Of a DNA stretch of 64,000 nt, positions 6,221 to 13,671 are shown piece by piece. The position numbers and the translations under genes are program-made. The stretch lies in IMG/VR virus record IMGVR_UViG_3300036940_000389. One strand, given 5' to 3'. This stretch comes from a virus. Position 1 is the first letter of the stretch; each line of letters starts with the position of its first letter. The notes under the pieces were generated by a model. It was not told the origin of the DNA and searched no databases. It saw nothing but the letters and a program-made list of their open reading frames with translations.

Positions 6221-6279
6221 CAAATCCTTTACCATTCAGCCCTGGGAAAATAAATTCCCAGAGCCTCAGATATAGGATC
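6221..6279 (-). repeat. long stem-loop at stop codon (hairpin family)
   Basis: GATCCTATATCTGAGGCTCTGGGAA-TTTATT-TTCCCAGGGCTGAATGGTAAAGGATTTG. Confidence 0.85.
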
Positions 6280-6802
6280 ATGCCACTGCTCTGTCCTCTT
6301 CCTTGTCTAATCTTTGGGATCCCCACGTTGCTCTCATGGTATCCCAATCAACTCCTTTACCCTTCCTATGATATTTCTCTGGCTTGATATACCAAGCCAG
6401 CTTGGTTTTGGAGAAGCCGACACCGCAATCAGCTTCCTTTCCAGCTTCTTTTATTACTTCCTTCACTGGTTTTGTATCACCAGTGATCCAGAGCCAGGAG
6501 CCTATCAGCTCCAACTCAATTCCAGGAATCCTCTTGAGAGTTTCATACGCCCTCAGGAGCTTGTCTCCAAGAAGCTCATTCCCTGTTGAGGGCTTCCCAC
6601 TCATCAGGTAGTCCTTCAAATCATTCCAACGATCTGAGGCCTCCTTATACGCCTCATTCACCATCTGCATGATCTCATTTCCTCGATCTCCTACCAAGTC
6701 AGGATGATATCTCTTGGCGAGATTTCGATACTTGGTCTTGAGATCCTCAAGACTGTTCTCAGTCTCAATTCCTAAAATGTCGATTACGGTTTGTAATTTC
6801 AT
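6278..6802 (-). CDS. J-domain (DnaJ-like) protein
   Basis: LKTKYRNLAKRYHPD..MQMVNEAY J-domain with HPD; C-terminal LIGSWLWITGDTKP..K..AWY domain. Confidence 0.85.
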   Translation of the reverse strand: MKLQTVIDILGIETENSLEDLKTKYRNLAKRYHPDLVGDRGNEIMQMVNEAYKEASDRWNDLKDYLMSGKPSTGNELLGDKLLRAYETLKRIPGIELELIGSWLWITGDTKPVKEVIKEAGKEADCGVGFSKTKLAWYIKPEKYHRKGKGVDWDTMRATWGSQRLDKEEDRAVA

Positions 6803-6999: not shown

Positions 7000-7491
7000 T
7001 TATTCGGATTCTTCCTGTTCGTATAGTGCAACAAATAATTCTGCACTATATGCGGGATCCAATGCGCCGTGTGAATAAAGCGAACGGATTGTGGCGCGGA
7101 TAGCATTCACATAACCGTTCTGCTTGGACTCTACACCGAGCATGTCCCTTGCCTCCTCCTCACTGAGCGTGGGATCCATTACCATGAGGTCAGCCAGTTG
7201 ACTGACCATTGCCTCTGAGTCTCCAAGGAGCCAGCGCCTAGTGGCACGTGCCCTCTTGGTGTACTGAGGGCCCTTAGGAGTCCGTTTACACCCTGTCCCT
7301 GTCCCTGTGGACTGGGTGGCTGCCTCGGCCTTGGCTTTGGCGTCCTCTTGAGCCTCAACCCGTGCCTTTTCTGAGGCAATGAGCCTCACCAGTGCCTTGA
7401 GAGGCAGTCCTTCAAACTCACCGGCGTCTTCGCCTGTGATCTGAACCAATTCCTGTACTGCATCCTTCTTAGTGATTGTTGCATTTGACAT
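7000..7491 (-). CDS. first gene of the leftward (early) unit, hypothetical
   Basis: 163-aa ORF, AGGAGGTG SD, GC-richer than the rest of the window. Confidence 0.8.
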   Translation of the reverse strand: MSNATITKKDAVQELVQITGEDAGEFEGLPLKALVRLIASEKARVEAQEDAKAKAEAATQSTGTGTGCKRTPKGPQYTKRARATRRWLLGDSEAMVSQLADLMVMDPTLSEEEARDMLGVESKQNGYVNAIRATIRSLYSHGALDPAYSAELFVALYEQEESE

Positions 7492-7499
7492 GGTGCACC

Positions 7500-8270
7500 T
7501 CCTAGTGCAGTTATAAGTGGGAAACCAACTCCATTCTGCCGGGAATGGCTTGGGATCATGGTGTCTGGAGACGGCTTCCTAGCCGTAGTTCCGATTGACC
7601 ACAATCCCACTCCATCCCAGATATGGAGCGCGGTATACGCCACGGGTCCTGGCCTGCTATGTGCTTCCCTGATATTAGGATCATGGCTGCATAGCCTTTG
7701 TGGCTCGCCGTCGGGGCGTATTCTAAGGTGAGGGCAGACGGGTTTTGATATGCGGGGCTTTATTCGGTTTAGATCCTGTCCTTAGGAGCTAGTCACCAAA
7801 GATCTTACACTAGGAATCCGCTGCCCCGTATATCTCATAACTACACGGGGACCTAGTGCTTCCCACCCTTCCTGGCGTAACATACGCCTACAGGGAGTGG
7901 GAAATGGGATCATGGCTCCAAACGGGACTAGGCAGCCTCCGCAGGGACTCGCCACCAATCTGGTGTCCCCCACCTAGCATAGACTTTGTTCCCACTTTGC
8001 GTGAGCCTATCGAGGCAGTTGTCCATGACCTGCCTCCGTCCGAGATATCTTAGCTCGGAACATATCCCCCTGCTCCCCCTTTTACCCCGGGATCATTGCA
8101 TGGGTTCCCCTTTCTGGGCTGCCTCCGATCAGTGGCTCCAGACGGTGCGTGGTCTATATGCTCACCGCTGTTGCCGTGCCGTTGGCTATGTCAAAGAGCG
8201 GGTTAACTGACCCCCTATGTTAAAGTTGAGCGCCTTGCGCTGGTAGCTGGTGTCGAGACACCACTACAAT
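7500..8270. other. GC-rich, hairpin-dense non-coding region between divergent units (candidate large ncRNA, origin or genome-end element)
   Basis: stems at 7552-7608, 7677-7777, 7808-7858, 7860-7902, 7905-7994, 8012-8036, 8039-8059, 8248-8263; GGGATCATGG-like motif x4; 57-63% GC in two sampled lines. Confidence 0.6.
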
Positions 8271-8344
8271 CGAATGCTATTTTTCAAAGTAAAGAGATTA
8301 AGTAACACGTCTTCTAATACTCATATACACGTCTACACGTTCAA

Positions 8345-8381
8345 TACACACTCACTACACACTCACTACACACTCACTACA
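8345..8381. repeat. 11-bp tandem repeat TACACACTCAC x3.4
   Basis: copies at 8345, 8356, 8367 plus TACA. Confidence 0.95.
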
Positions 8382-8410
8382 TTTGAATCTCTTCTGGAAG
8401 TGTGATATTT

Positions 8411-8435
8411 ATTGTATTATATTGTATTGTATTGT
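8411..8435. repeat. 5-bp tandem repeat ATTGT x5 (one ATTAT variant)
   Basis: read directly. Confidence 0.9.
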
Positions 8436-8437
8436 TT

Positions 8438-8467
8438 GGATACATAAGGATACATAAGGATACATAA
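8438..8467. repeat. 10-bp tandem repeat GGATACATAA x3
   Basis: copies at 8438, 8448, 8458. Confidence 0.95.
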
Positions 8468-8489
8468 GACACACAAAGGAGAAAATATA

Positions 8490-9377
8490 ATGCCAAGAAC
8501 AGGTCAAGGAAATGCAATTCCTCATGGGGTACAGAATAAGCTTGGAGATGTAAGGCTAGAGAAAGGGAGATGGGGAAATGATAAAGAGAATAGCATTTAT
8601 ATACTAGCGTGGGATTTCGCTGAGGATTGCACAGGAATTAAATGCCCGCTGTATGAGAAGTGCGAGTACATGCAGATACAGAAGAGTGTTCCTTGCGAAA
8701 GGACAAGCAAGTGTGCGCTTCAGCAGAAGTACCTCAAGAGTGTAATGAAGGCTGTTGTTGAGAAGATGAAAAAGAACAAGGCTACTGAGGAGACTGTGAT
8801 AAAGTTAGGATATCATTTGATTCCTCTGTATGCTCAGTTGTTCAAGTTCAAGATGTGGGAAACGTACAATAAGGAGATTATAATTTATTCTCAGGGGAGT
8901 CCTAAAGTGCATCCTGTGTACAAGGAGATGAGAGAGATTATAAAAACGCTCACGAGTGTTTGGAAAGATATTGGAAGTGTGTTTAAGGAGAAGGCTGATC
9001 CAGGAAAAGTAGGAGATGGGGCTTTTATAGACGCTATGTACGGAGTGGTTGATGAGGAGTCAGAAGAGGATCCAAAAGGATCAGGAATTGATTTCGAGTC
9101 AGAGGATGATGAGGAAGAATCAGAAGAGGGAACAGGATTAGATGAGTTAGATCAGCCAGTGAAGAAAAAGAAAGCACGAGGAAAGCAAAAAAATTATCAT
9201 AAGAAGAAAAGGAAGCCTAGATCCAAAGCAAAAATTGATGTTCCAGGATATAATTCAAGAGCGCATAGGAATGAGGTCAGGAAAGGGGAGAAAGCAGAGC
9301 CGATAAGAGTCTCAGAGAAAGTAGCTGAGAAGAAAAGGAAGCGCAAGGAAAAGCAAAAGGAGAGCGGGGAAAACTAG
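8490..9377 (+). CDS. terminase small subunit (putative) with acidic and basic C-terminal tails
   Basis: first gene of the packaging operon; KVHPVYKEMREII resembles the P27-type TerS motif; AAAGGAGA SD. Confidence 0.6.
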   Translation: MPRTGQGNAIPHGVQNKLGDVRLEKGRWGNDKENSIYILAWDFAEDCTGIKCPLYEKCEYMQIQKSVPCERTSKCALQQKYLKSVMKAVVEKMKKNKATEETVIKLGYHLIPLYAQLFKFKMWETYNKEIIIYSQGSPKVHPVYKEMREIIKTLTSVWKDIGSVFKEKADPGKVGDGAFIDAMYGVVDEESEEDPKGSGIDFESEDDEEESEEGTGLDELDQPVKKKKARGKQKNYHKKKRKPRSKAKIDVPGYNSRAHRNEVRKGEKAEPIRVSEKVAEKKRKRKEKQKESGEN

Positions 9378-10137: not shown

Positions 10138-12015
10138 ATGGCAATAGAGAGAATGGATCCTAAAAAGATTCCTGAATATCAAAATGGTGCTGAGGGATTT
10201 ATAAAATTCGTTGAAGAGAATGTGCGTTTTAGTGTTCCTCAAAAGAATTCTCCAGTTCCAAAATGGCTTTATCCAACACAATTATCAGATGTTCCAGATC
10301 CCACAACAGGAAAGTCATTCAGGGGAATGTGGGAAGAGCAGAAGAAGGTGCTGAGAGAAGCACTAGAAATGAGAAACGGACAGTTTGTTTATAGATTGAT
10401 TGCTTTTTGCTGGCCACGTGGAGAAGGAAAATCATTGATTGTGTGTCTTATTCAGATATGGAAGTTTTTTTGTTTTCCTCGTCAGCAAATTGTGTTCGGT
10501 GCTCTTTCAAAAGATCAAACACGTTTTGTGCATTATGAAATGATTCAATCAGTGATACTGAATAGCCCAAAACTCGTGAACGTCATTGGGAAAGCAAATG
10601 TGCAGAGAGCATGGACTGTTCTCAAGAATTCAAGGGGAGAAACAATATCTTCGTTTCAGCCAATATCAAGCTATTCAGGAATCGTTTCAAATATCACTGG
10701 ATATACGTTTTCTGAAATGTTTGATATGAAAGATCCTAAGTTTTTTGTGCAACTTGATGGTTCTATACGAAATATTATAAATGCTCTTGGAACAATAGAC
10801 AGCACAGTATCAACTAAGGATCATGTGCTCTATCGTTTATATAGAGGATACATAAATGGAGAAGACAGACTGACGTTTTTTCATCATAGAAGTGCTCCAA
10901 ATGCTACTCCTGATGAATACTGGCATCCTTATATGAACAAGGAGCAGTTGGATTCTTACAGAAGGAAGTTCCCTCCAGCAGATTTTGATCGATATTTTAG
11001 AAATGTTTGGGAACTTGAGAGTGGAAAACTATTCTCAGAGCCTGCTGCGAAGTCAATATTTTACTACGGATTCAAAAATAATAACGATATTACAAAAATA
11101 GATGATGGAACTGTAGTGAAAATACTAAATCAGGTGCAAGAAAATGAGATAAAAATAGAAAAAAGAGATGGGAGAAAGAACAAAAAGAAAAGAAAAAGAA
11201 TACAAAAAAATACTGTTGAGAACTTGAGAGAGCAAAATATCAAGATGAAAGAAAAGCTTATCCATATGGATAATGTTTACAAACTGCATAAAAACAACAT
11301 GCCCAGATTAGCTTCCAATAAAGACCTCAGGAAATTGACTGAATTATATGATACGAATTGGTCTGTTCATGCGGGAATAGACAGATCGGATCCTCTTGCT
11401 AAGAACCCACTTGCAAGAACAATAGTGACTATTGTAGCCAAGGGTTTGACAGGTAGTAGGAGTAAATATAAGATTAAAGAAGATGTTCCTTCTTACATTT
11501 ATATACTATTGCATTTATCTTGGATACAAGATGCAACACTTGAAGGTATAAAAAATGAACTGAGTGAGGCTGTTGTAGAATATGATGGAATAGATACTCT
11601 CTGTTCAGAGAGATGGGGAACGTGGGATTTAGCTCCATGGTGTGAAGATCACGATGTTCATTTTGAGCCTGTGTTTCCTTCTTTCGAGAAACAGAAGAAA
11701 GCCTTTTCAGAAATGTACATTGTTATTCAAGACGGAAGATTCAAATCTTCTGATATAATTATTCCGGGATCAATTTCTGAGAATATTCTTTCTGAAGAAT
11801 TGCAAATGTTCGATTACGATCCCCAAAGAAAATGGTACGGAAGTCCACAAAAGAATGATGTTGGGGGAATACAGGACGACTCGATTTTTTCACTTGGATG
11901 GTGTATCTATGGAGGAAGGGAGTTCGGAGTAGAGCAGTTCAGAGAAAGAATAGGTAACAATGATTTTGGATCATTTGTTCCCAATAAAAACAATTTTGCT
12001 AGATACGATTTATAA
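10138..12015 (+). CDS. terL: terminase large subunit
   Basis: Walker A-like WPRGEGKS, motif DPADFDRYFRNVW, nuclease acidic residues (AGIDRS, QDDSIFS), position before portal. Confidence 0.9.
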   Translation: MAIERMDPKKIPEYQNGAEGFIKFVEENVRFSVPQKNSPVPKWLYPTQLSDVPDPTTGKSFRGMWEEQKKVLREALEMRNGQFVYRLIAFCWPRGEGKSLIVCLIQIWKFFCFPRQQIVFGALSKDQTRFVHYEMIQSVILNSPKLVNVIGKANVQRAWTVLKNSRGETISSFQPISSYSGIVSNITGYTFSEMFDMKDPKFFVQLDGSIRNIINALGTIDSTVSTKDHVLYRLYRGYINGEDRLTFFHHRSAPNATPDEYWHPYMNKEQLDSYRRKFPPADFDRYFRNVWELESGKLFSEPAAKSIFYYGFKNNNDITKIDDGTVVKILNQVQENEIKIEKRDGRKNKKKRKRIQKNTVENLREQNIKMKEKLIHMDNVYKLHKNNMPRLASNKDLRKLTELYDTNWSVHAGIDRSDPLAKNPLARTIVTIVAKGLTGSRSKYKIKEDVPSYIYILLHLSWIQDATLEGIKNELSEAVVEYDGIDTLCSERWGTWDLAPWCEDHDVHFEPVFPSFEKQKKAFSEMYIVIQDGRFKSSDIIIPGSISENILSEELQMFDYDPQRKWYGSPQKNDVGGIQDDSIFSLGWCIYGGREFGVEQFRERIGNNDFGSFVPNKNNFARYDL

Positions 12016-12027
12016 GAGGAAAAGCGT

Positions 12028-13671
12028 ATGTCTGAAGAAAATTTAGAGTTCCAACCACTCGCAATTGCAAATGAAGAGGCAGCATCTTATCTGAATAGCC
12101 TGTCAGACGAAATGCTTTCCGCTTTTTCGTTTCCTCTTTTTAGTTCGAGTTCATCTATTGAGAGATCAAATGCTGCTGTTGATGCTGATGGCTTTCCAAA
12201 TGTGAATCAGAACTATTTATGGGATTTGCACAAACTGCAAGAGCAGTGTTGGAACAAAGCTGAAAGAAATCCCTGGATCAATTCCCATGTTCGAGATACC
12301 ATGGGAAGAATGGCAGGATGGGGATTTGAGTTCTATTCAAAAATTCCTGACTTGCAGAAAGCAATTGATGAGATTGTTGATGATCCCAGAAATGATATCT
12401 ATCAAAACATGCCGAAATTTTGTGCAAGAACTGAGATTGAGGGAGAACTTTTTCTCATGTTCACTTTGCATAAGAATGGTTTTGTTGAGGTAGATTTTAT
12501 GTCTCCTTCTATGATTAGAGAAGGAGGAGATGATGGTTCTGGAATTATTTTTCATCCTACCAAACAAAATTTCCCTCTATTTTACTTCGTCAATTTTCCA
12601 AAAGCACAAAATGCTAATGGTACTGAGCAGGCATTAATACCGTCTATTAATATTTGTTACTTTCCTGATTTGGAGAAAGAAGTAAAAGATCACTCCTCTT
12701 TCGATTCAAAAAAATTGAAATACGCAAAAGCACGAAAACCAAATAGTGCTCCGTATGATAAGACAAATGGTTATTTTCGTTTTATTGTGCATTGGAATAA
12801 AGGTTTTATAACGAAAAGAAACGTCAGTCATATCAAGACAACAATCGAATGGGTGAATTATTATGAGTCTTTGAAGAAGTACGAAATTGATCATAAAAAA
12901 TCCAGCGGTGCTTACTTGTGGGTCATTGAAATGGAAGACGTTAGATCCTTTCGAAGATGGCTGCAAATGAGCGAAGAGGATCGAAGACAAACGGGAATTA
13001 TGCAGCCAAAAGATCCTGGAGGCACACTTGTCCTTCCCCCAGGTATGAAACTCACTGTGCAGAATCCTAAACTTTCTTCAATATCTGATGAAGACACAGA
13101 TATTATGCAGATGGTGAGTTCTGGATTACAGAAACCACAGGATACAATGCTCGGGGACTATCGCAGTACATATGCGAGTGTGAAAACTTCACAAGGACCA
13201 CAGGGAGATAGAATCAATGATGAGCTTCATTATTTTAGACTTTTTTTGATGTACGATTTCTGGCGTCCTATTTGCTATTTGAGATCATTGGCAAGAGATG
13301 ATTTTAAATACAAGCGCAGAGTAAAAGAAACTGTTGATTTTGATGATAATAAAGAACCCATACTCGAAAATGTACAAAAACCAGTCTACAAATTGATAGA
13401 TATTTGTCTTCCAATGTCTCGTCTTGAGGACATTGAGTCTATTGCTAAGGCGCTGCTTGGTTCTAAACATGCTTCAGTTGTTGATACTCTTGGAATTCCA
13501 AGAGAGGTAGTTGCACGAAGACTTGGATTCACAAATTATGGTGCGCTTCGCAGAGCAAAAGCAACTGAGGATGAGAATTTTCCTGAAACACTCTCTGCTT
13601 TTGATCAGGAAAGTGTTCAAGAGAAAGCTGAAGGGGAGCCAAAAGGTAGCTCTAGTGACAAACAGGAGTAA
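12028..13671 (+). CDS. portal protein
   Basis: 547 aa directly after TerL and before the protease; IEGELFLMF and LVLPPG segments typical of portals. Confidence 0.8.
   Translation: MSEENLEFQPLAIANEEAASYLNSLSDEMLSAFSFPLFSSSSSIERSNAAVDADGFPNVNQNYLWDLHKLQEQCWNKAERNPWINSHVRDTMGRMAGWGFEFYSKIPDLQKAIDEIVDDPRNDIYQNMPKFCARTEIEGELFLMFTLHKNGFVEVDFMSPSMIREGGDDGSGIIFHPTKQNFPLFYFVNFPKAQNANGTEQALIPSINICYFPDLEKEVKDHSSFDSKKLKYAKARKPNSAPYDKTNGYFRFIVHWNKGFITKRNVSHIKTTIEWVNYYESLKKYEIDHKKSSGAYLWVIEMEDVRSFRRWLQMSEEDRRQTGIMQPKDPGGTLVLPPGMKLTVQNPKLSSISDEDTDIMQMVSSGLQKPQDTMLGDYRSTYASVKTSQGPQGDRINDELHYFRLFLMYDFWRPICYLRSLARDDFKYKRRVKETVDFDDNKEPILENVQKPVYKLIDICLPMSRLEDIESIAKALLGSKHASVVDTLGIPREVVARRLGFTNYGALRRAKATEDENFPETLSAFDQESVQEKAEGEPKGSSSDKQE

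Follow-up and report, generated by a model that had tools for sequence, protein, structure and literature searches.

A probable new large structured RNA headed by a boxA-like signal in a phage early operon

The locus between the early and late units

The window, i.e., the whole stretch of 64,000 nucleotides analyzed here, is a part of an 89-kb IMG/VR record of the provirus class with an overall GC content of about 35%. A sequencing-run look-up listed DNA nearly identical to the window in about 20 DNA sequencing runs, mostly oil-field metagenomes, and there were no RNA sequencing runs among the listed runs holding window DNA. The early genes run leftward on one side of a GC-rich stretch and the late genes rightward on the other, the gap between these two divergent units being about 1 kb long and containing no credible gene. 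The main features of the locus are as follows.

6278-6802, leftward early unit: gene of a DnaJ-domain protein
7000-7491, minus strand: ORF163 (P0001), 163 aa, start at 7491
7529-8213, minus-strand sense: the element proper, about 685 nt
8214-8290: control region beside the element, outside the RNA body; it has two small hairpins, one of them at 8248-8263
8303-8467: micro-tandem repeat arrays upstream of the first late gene
from 8490, rightward: first late gene, encoding a 295-aa protein with no assigned function
10138-12015, plus strand: large terminase, with weak PHROG matches
12028-13671, rightward late unit: portal

Comparison of the DNA of the region with GenBank phages gave no match, and the large terminase protein (10138-12015) had no tblastn match in 50,697 GenBank phage records. 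The phage lineage itself is poorly sampled, as judged from the terminase search.

Homologous elements and their placement

A search of IMG/VR with the two flanking proteins revealed L002 as the sole relative, and three scans of the same database with conserved blocks or signatures returned either L002 or chance matches only. A 19-mer taken from the most conserved block gave only seven chance matches to metagenome contigs, and a 20-mer gave a single chance match to genome contigs, in a high-GC MAG. Since ORF163 stays beside the element, it was used as a handle for further variants, and the contigs of the relatives found by a profile search were fetched. The homologues thus collected are five further variants (L002, L013/L014, L015, L024 and L025) and one related leader, L023, all of them on metagenomic contigs. 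None of the five further variants is both complete and independent: in L013/L014 the element is chimeric, its 5' half resembling that of L002 and its 3' half that of the window; L015 is a partial copy, truncated as L024 probably is too; and L025 is a short form of about 470 nt, which lacks several hairpins and was recognized only by nhmmer (E = 2e-6) and by the conserved motifs. The element of L024 is about 75-80% identical to that of the window. In L002, the flanking genes are 95-98% identical to those of the window, whereas the element is only about 77-85% identical, its blocks being split by hairpin-sized indels. As divergence is far greater in the elements than in the phage genes on their flanks, the elements appear to be exchanged as modules.

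The element is co-oriented with the ORF163 gene and the early operon in every variant, while its place changes. It lies upstream of the ORF163 homologue in the window, L013 and L024, and downstream of it in L002, L015 and L025; in the latter three it is found between two genes of the early operon and not at the divergent junction. What follows the element is accordingly the ORF163 gene in three cases (window, L013 and L024), whereas L002 has an unrelated ORF of 110 aa there and L025 an ORF of 130 aa; in every variant, only a few bases separate the 3' end of the element from the next ribosome-binding site. In L002 the order is a promoter-like TTGACA-N18-TAGTAA (recognized by eye), a ribosome-binding site, the ORF163 homologue and then the element; in L013 the element comes directly after a similar promoter, also recognized by eye, and a purine-rich ribosome-binding site, and beyond the element there are a second ribosome-binding site and the ORF163 gene. 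Because the gene order around the ribosome-binding sites differs in this way between L002 and L013, the orphan Shine-Dalgarno-like run in the 5' hairpin of the element is probably a scar of module exchange at conserved ribosome-binding sites.

A long hairpin was observed between the preceding stop codon and the mid-operon elements (L002:1905-1990, minus strand; L015:776-850; L025:1108-1160); it could be a candidate processing site freeing the RNA.

The control region at 8214-8290 is 97% identical to L002:2527-2607, and the element of L002 is situated about 650 nt further along the operon. The micro-tandem repeat arrays at 8303-8467 are about 97% conserved at L002:2620-2790, and their conservation in L002 is independent of the position of the RNA element.

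Extent, composition and coding capacity of the element

The preliminary description of this DNA had delimited a structured non-coding stretch at 7500-8270. The stretch is real, but the element proper, as delimited by comparison with the homologues, is narrower and occupies positions 7529-8213. The stretch is also the GC maximum of the contig, although the measured GC content, 0.50-0.58 in 200-nt windows across 7400-8300 versus about 0.35 for the 89-kb record, is below the 57-63% originally noted. Among the stems drawn earlier, those at 7552-7608, 7808-7858 and 7860-7902 and the nested helices of 7905-7994 are present, whereas the stem at 8248-8263 belongs to the neighboring control region.

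The non-coding nature of the stretch holds as well. No conserved ORF is present between 7491 and 8490, several stops being found in all six frames of most variants. Two long open antisense frames (186 codons in L024 and 106 codons in L025) are broken in other variants and are due to chance. The indels by which the variants of the element differ have lengths that are not multiples of three. A mini-ORF after the orphan Shine-Dalgarno sequence was considered and dropped, being not conserved.

Folding of the region was beyond that of dinucleotide shuffles on both strands (z = -3.0 for the plus strand and -3.3 for the minus strand), a check that the preliminary description had proposed. The recurrent motif RGGATCATKG was indeed found in four copies (at 7552, 7677, 7906 and 8089), all on the plus strand and nowhere else in the 64 kb, with about 0.97 copies expected per 64 kb. 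In the RNA it reads CMAUGAUCCY; the copies span 7552-8098, occur in differing structural contexts and are partly kept in other variants. Another short sequence, C(A/T)GCCTCCG, is present three times on the plus strand (7940-7948, 8030-8038 and 8120-8128) and reads CGGAGGC(A/U)G in the RNA; GGAGG-like runs are frequent in L024 too and are maybe a by-product of G-rich helices.

Architecture of the RNA and covariation of its helices

A de novo alignment with the homologous regions, proposed in the preliminary description as a check, was made, and it revealed compensatory changes in the helices of the element. In the order of the minus-strand sense, the element consists of the following parts.

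8200-8213, minus strand: small 5' hairpin, boxB-like, its 5' arm being the orphan Shine-Dalgarno-like purine run
8184-8199, minus strand: boxA-like motif GCUCUUUGACAUAGCC, core at 8189-8199
7975-8183, minus strand: 5' domain, the least well resolved domain
7727-7974, minus strand: central domain, closed by a 17-bp long-range helix
7967-7974 with 7727-7734, minus strand: helix C1
7954-7962 with 7735-7743, minus strand: helix C2
7939-7943 with 7751-7755, minus strand: inner helix C3
7925-7932 with 7775-7781, minus strand: inner helix C4
7862-7901 and 7808-7858, minus strand: variable branch hairpins of the central domain
7636-7721, minus strand: D2, a long irregular hairpin closed by AUACGCC/GGCGUAU
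7529-7628, minus strand: D3', a long irregular hairpin forming the 3' domain, followed by the ribosome-binding site and start of ORF163
7531-7548, minus strand: local 3'-end hairpin of the RNA that resembles a terminator and has a U-rich tail

The helices were evaluated by counting paired cells in the alignment of the variants, of which about five are independent, all from related phages of similar habitats; the covariation counts are consequently small, and the relatedness of the variants can inflate the shuffle controls. In D3', with five variants aligned, 98.3% of the cells were paired and 12 of the 36 pairs were changed on both sides; none of 500 shuffles scored as high, and sliding the partners by 1-3 columns lowered pairing to 34-49%. 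In the central domain together with D2 (four variants, 53 pairs in nine helices), 97.2% of the cells were paired, with changes on both sides in 14 of the 53 pairs; again, none of 500 shuffles reached this level, and slid partners were about 40% paired. Within this set, helices 1-4 of the central domain were 96-100% paired (7 of 29 pairs changed on both sides), and among the helices of D2 (5-9) the closing one had four of its seven pairs changed on both sides. A covariance model of D3' (R1) scored 78-125 bits in the sense orientation versus 21-32 bits in antisense at all five loci, and gave no additional copies, whether in the window or at any of the loci.

The sequences behind these counts differ profoundly. 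For the closing helix of D2, the window has AUACGCC/GGCGUAU, L024 has GCGUGCU/AGCACGU and L025 has GAUGAUC/GAUUAUC, around invariant internal loops (a CCG bulge, and CGA facing CAGGA). In D3', the main helix changes from GGGAUUGUGGU/ACCAUGAUCCC (window) to CUCCGAACACU/AGUGUUCGGAG (L025); besides this helix the domain has a GGA/UCC helix, a tip that varies and an internal loop, CAAUC opposite AGAC, that is invariant. That this loop forms a k-turn was considered and dropped, as there is no GA on both strands. In the 5' domain, the hairpin at 8139-8170 presents a conserved 15-nt loop with two compensatory pairs around the conserved AUAU(A/U)GACCA, the stem being CGGUG/CACCG in the window and GGGAG/CUCCC in L025; at 8108-8118, a CCC-AGAAA-GGG hairpin is replaced by a longer one in L002, L013 and L024. 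Of the branch hairpins of the central domain, L015 and L024 have covarying versions, while other hairpins take their place in L002 and L013. Thus the short form, L025, keeps its helices with entirely different sequences, and variable hairpins are swapped or resized between the variants around a conserved core, which is the usual pattern of functional RNAs.

The terminator-like hairpin at 7531-7548 was flagged in the window and in L013 (L013:733-750) and is not conserved in L025. Since it cannot form together with the outer helices of D3', which covary, it may be a candidate attenuator or a marker of the RNA 3' end.

Strand of the active molecule

The preliminary description had held that the G-U pairs leave the strand unresolved. 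Comparison of the homologues, on the contrary, favors the minus strand, with about 40 G.U cells against about 3 A.C cells, although the helices were defined while reading the minus strand, which introduces some bias in this wobble count. In D3' there were 14 G.U cells versus at most one A.C cell, and in the central domain with D2 26 versus 2; a hand-made helix list overlapping the latter test gave 29 versus 2. When the plus strand was read instead, pairing dropped to about 91% in D3' and about 86% in the central domain with D2. Several single changes convert G-C into G.U or G.U into A-U, which is sensible only on the minus strand. The pairs common to the minimum-free-energy folds of both strands were neutral in this respect (6 versus 7), and this count is superseded by the tests on covarying helices. 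As far as an alignment can tell, the wobble pairs settle the molecule as a minus-strand transcript in the sense of the early operon.

The hairpin and boxA-like motif at the 5' edge

At the 5' edge, five leaders carry GYUCUUUG(A/U)CA, with the consensus GYUCUUUGACA. The edge reads GCUCUUUGACAUAGCC in the window and L002, where the core is GCUCUUUGACA; the corresponding sequence is GUUCUUUGACA in L013 and L023, GCUCUUUGUCA in L025 and, more weakly matching, GUCUUUCACA in L015. Directly before the motif, five variants have a small hairpin, the arms of which covary: it is kept with differing sequences as GGGU/ACCC in the window, GGA/UCC in L002, AGGA/UCCU in L013, AGGAG/CUCCU in L025 and a 10-bp hairpin in L015.

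The consensus of boxA is GYTCTTTAANA in gamma-proteobacteria (PMC5725501), and it was given in a 2026 study as UGCUCUUUAACA for E. coli and AUGAUCUUUGAAA for B. subtilis, where boxA is found immediately downstream of a small hairpin and binds NusB (PMC13753749). The core GCUCUUUGACA agrees with the gamma-proteobacterial GYUCUUUAANA at 10 of 11 positions (G for A at position 8), and the B. subtilis consensus, too, has a G there; boxA has a length of only 11-12 nt. The window motif at 8189-8199 is an exact match to the loose pattern GYTCTTTRAMA; exact matches to this pattern number two in the 64 kb, and a single 11-mer is not significant. The weight of the boxA case comes from the motif being kept at the same edge of otherwise diverged leaders, and not from the single 11-mer. 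The second loose match, GCTCTTTAAAA at 1803-1813 on the minus strand, lies inside an early ORF and is probably due to chance.

No promoter was recognized ahead of the element in the window itself. Promoter-like sites were seen in L023 and, by eye, in L013, and the hairpin-boxA signal is located mid-operon in L002, L015 and L025. In L023, the promoter-like TTGACA-17-TAGAGT, with an extended -10, stands about 75 nt upstream of the boxA-like motif on the same strand.

The related leader L023 deserves a separate description. At L023:1-460, about 300 nt of GC-rich leader (50%) stand before the ORF163 homologue (P0007), and the boxA-like GUUCUUUGACAUA is at position 119. The body of this leader was not detected by nhmmer as similar to the element, and it may represent a second, smaller RNA family in the same slot.

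Comparison with known RNA families and antitermination systems

The Rfam search proposed as a check in the preliminary description was negative: the whole window at the gathering threshold gave only tRNA-Gly, and searches at E <= 10 (positions 7000-8700) and at E <= 5 (six homologous loci) returned chance matches only. The covariance models of GOLLD, ROOL, OLE, HEARO and other catalogued large RNAs matched neither the window nor the variants. Accordingly, an RNase P-like or tmRNA-like RNA was dropped for want of an Rfam match. Group I and group II introns were rejected, their models giving no match even at E <= 10 and the element being intergenic in every variant. A riboswitch or gene-specific leader, which would be recognizable by a constant downstream gene, is less likely, three unrelated genes being found after the element. 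The element is, as judged by these model searches, a new RNA family.

GOLLD (RF01998) and ROOL (RF03087) are presented in a published account (PMC12286853) as large ornate RNAs often carried by phages or prophages. The element resembles them in being a phage-encoded multi-domain RNA of several hundred nucleotides with strongly conserved blocks between variable hairpins. GOLLD and ROOL are usually stand-alone genes near tRNAs, whereas the element is embedded in an operon, led by a boxA-like motif and paired with a protein gene.

The leaders of rrn operons, whose antitermination signal works with a complex of NusB-S10, NusA, NusG and SuhB, are similar in that a small hairpin and then, immediately, a boxA-like sequence head a long untranslated structured RNA. 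The UCUUUGA core of the phage motif is common to the B. subtilis consensus, and its GCUCUUU-ACA frame to that of E. coli. Unlike the rrn signals, that of the phage is found in an early operon before an RNA unrelated to rRNA, no boxC was seen, and in some variants the signal is mid-operon; a role of Nus factors is suggested here by similarity.

The nutL/N system of lambda and the put sites of HK022 offer a further parallel, since they too are located at or near the start of an early operon, with a gene of a small basic protein beside them and a boxA. The nut and put sites are promoter-proximal RNA elements of 40-70 nt which make early transcription termination-resistant, whereas the phage element is about 685 nt long and possesses long-range helices; moreover, in nut boxA comes first and the boxB hairpin, to which the arginine-rich N protein binds, comes after it, whereas in the phage element the hairpin precedes boxA.

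The neighboring protein ORF163

A profile search with ORF163 found 11 relatives at E <= 0.001 among 1.84 billion representative proteins. The family (relatives P0004-P0015) has a conserved basic stretch, TKRAKA..RR.L, and the AlphaFold2 model built with 13 sequences is all-helical (pLDDT 76). ORF163 fell within no Pfam or PHROG family, and a fold search against PDB and BFVD gave nothing significant, the best hit being an HeH/LEM-like viral protein (E = 0.15). No relation to lambda N was detectable in the Pfam and fold searches. The adjacency of ORF163 and the RNA may be mere synteny among related phages.

Interpretation of the element

Taken as a whole, these observations make it probable, in our opinion, that the element is a new large structured phage RNA, that it is a part of the early operon's transcript and that an rrn-type Nus/boxA antitermination signal protects its transcription. 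The large structured phage RNA or leader proposed in the preliminary description is supported by the compensatory changes, the strand-specific excess of G.U pairs and the constant co-orientation with the early operon. We suppose that from 8213 to 7529 on the minus strand a structured untranslated RNA would be transcribed within the leftward early operon. Its nascent hairpin and boxA-like motif would recruit host NusB-S10 and other Nus factors, as we infer from the likeness to boxA, and the resulting elongation complex would resist Rho and hairpin terminators, so that RNA polymerase would be carried through the long untranslated RNA and on into the early genes. The antitermination complex might also help the RNA to fold. 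Our best guess for the body is a stable RNA, perhaps bound by the ORF163-family protein, which would act early in host takeover, presumably in trans and not on one particular downstream gene.

It could be argued that the element is only a cis-acting leader or attenuator, by which a signal or a protein would be sensed and the next gene regulated at the level of transcriptional read-through or translation, with no role for a free RNA. The location of its 3' end a few bases before the next ribosome-binding site in every variant is consistent with such a function, as are the ORF163 homologue following it in the window, L013 and L024 and the mutual exclusion of the 3' terminator-like hairpin and the outer D3' helices, which is reminiscent of an expression platform. 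A gene-specific leader is nevertheless less likely because three different genes follow the element (ORF163, the 110-aa ORF of L002 and the 130-aa ORF of L025); besides, the long-range pairing covaries but L025 has not kept the alternative hairpin, and 685 nt with a multi-domain fold is larger than known leaders. We thus consider a purely cis-acting function rather unlikely. A signal acting as DNA, single-stranded or cruciform, such as an origin, a priming or packaging site or an injection stop near the terminase, is another possibility; the preliminary description had raised it for single-stranded DNA, as an origin, an injection stop or a genome end. Such a signal would be well placed where the early and late units diverge, with the packaging genes about 0.3-1 kb away; both strands fold better than shuffles, and G.T pairs form in single-stranded DNA as well and are tolerated by DNA hairpins. 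This explanation is disfavored and in our estimation most unlikely, because the wobble pairs are strongly one-sided, the orientation to transcription is fixed while the place changes, and the element of L002, L015 and L025 is found within the early operon; furthermore, ribosome-binding sites flank it at both ends and a hairpin-boxA transcription signal stands at its start. For a DNA-level site (packaging or regulatory), the independently conserved micro-repeat arrays at 8303-8467 are a more plausible choice than the RNA element.

A selfish or mobile RNA element, e.g., a degenerate ORF-less intron that has hopped between intergenic sites, would account for the differing positions relative to ORF163, for the GC-rich island in an AT-rich genome, for the chimera of two element types in L013 and for the orphan Shine-Dalgarno at the 5' edge, which, on comparison of L013 with L002, gives the impression of an insertion that separated a ribosome-binding site from its start codon. 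We find this highly unlikely, however, considering that the intron models of groups I and II had no match even at E <= 10, that no gene is interrupted and that no endonuclease, reverse transcriptase or transposase is encoded nearby. Splicing is not needed either, because the element has its own functional-looking ribosome-binding site downstream, and the module exchange at conserved ribosome-binding sites is ordinary phage mosaicism and not evidence of a mobile intron.

Returning to the large antitermination-shielded RNA, a bolder extension, which we offer as improbable, is that the RNA and the ORF163-family protein form a new phage ribonucleoprotein directed at the host transcription machinery, e.g., a boxA-bearing decoy or scaffold capturing Nus factors or RNA polymerase soon after infection begins. 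If this were true, host rRNA synthesis would be shut down and early transcription of the phage would be termination-proof.

Large, elaborately folded RNAs of bacteria and phages are rare and mostly without a known function. The element described here provides three handles, namely the 5' hairpin with the boxA signal, a candidate protein partner and natural variants including a minimal form of 470 nt, and because of them both its structure and its function are testable. If the boxA reading is true, phages outside the lambdoid and T7 groups would also borrow host rRNA antitermination for long untranslated RNAs.
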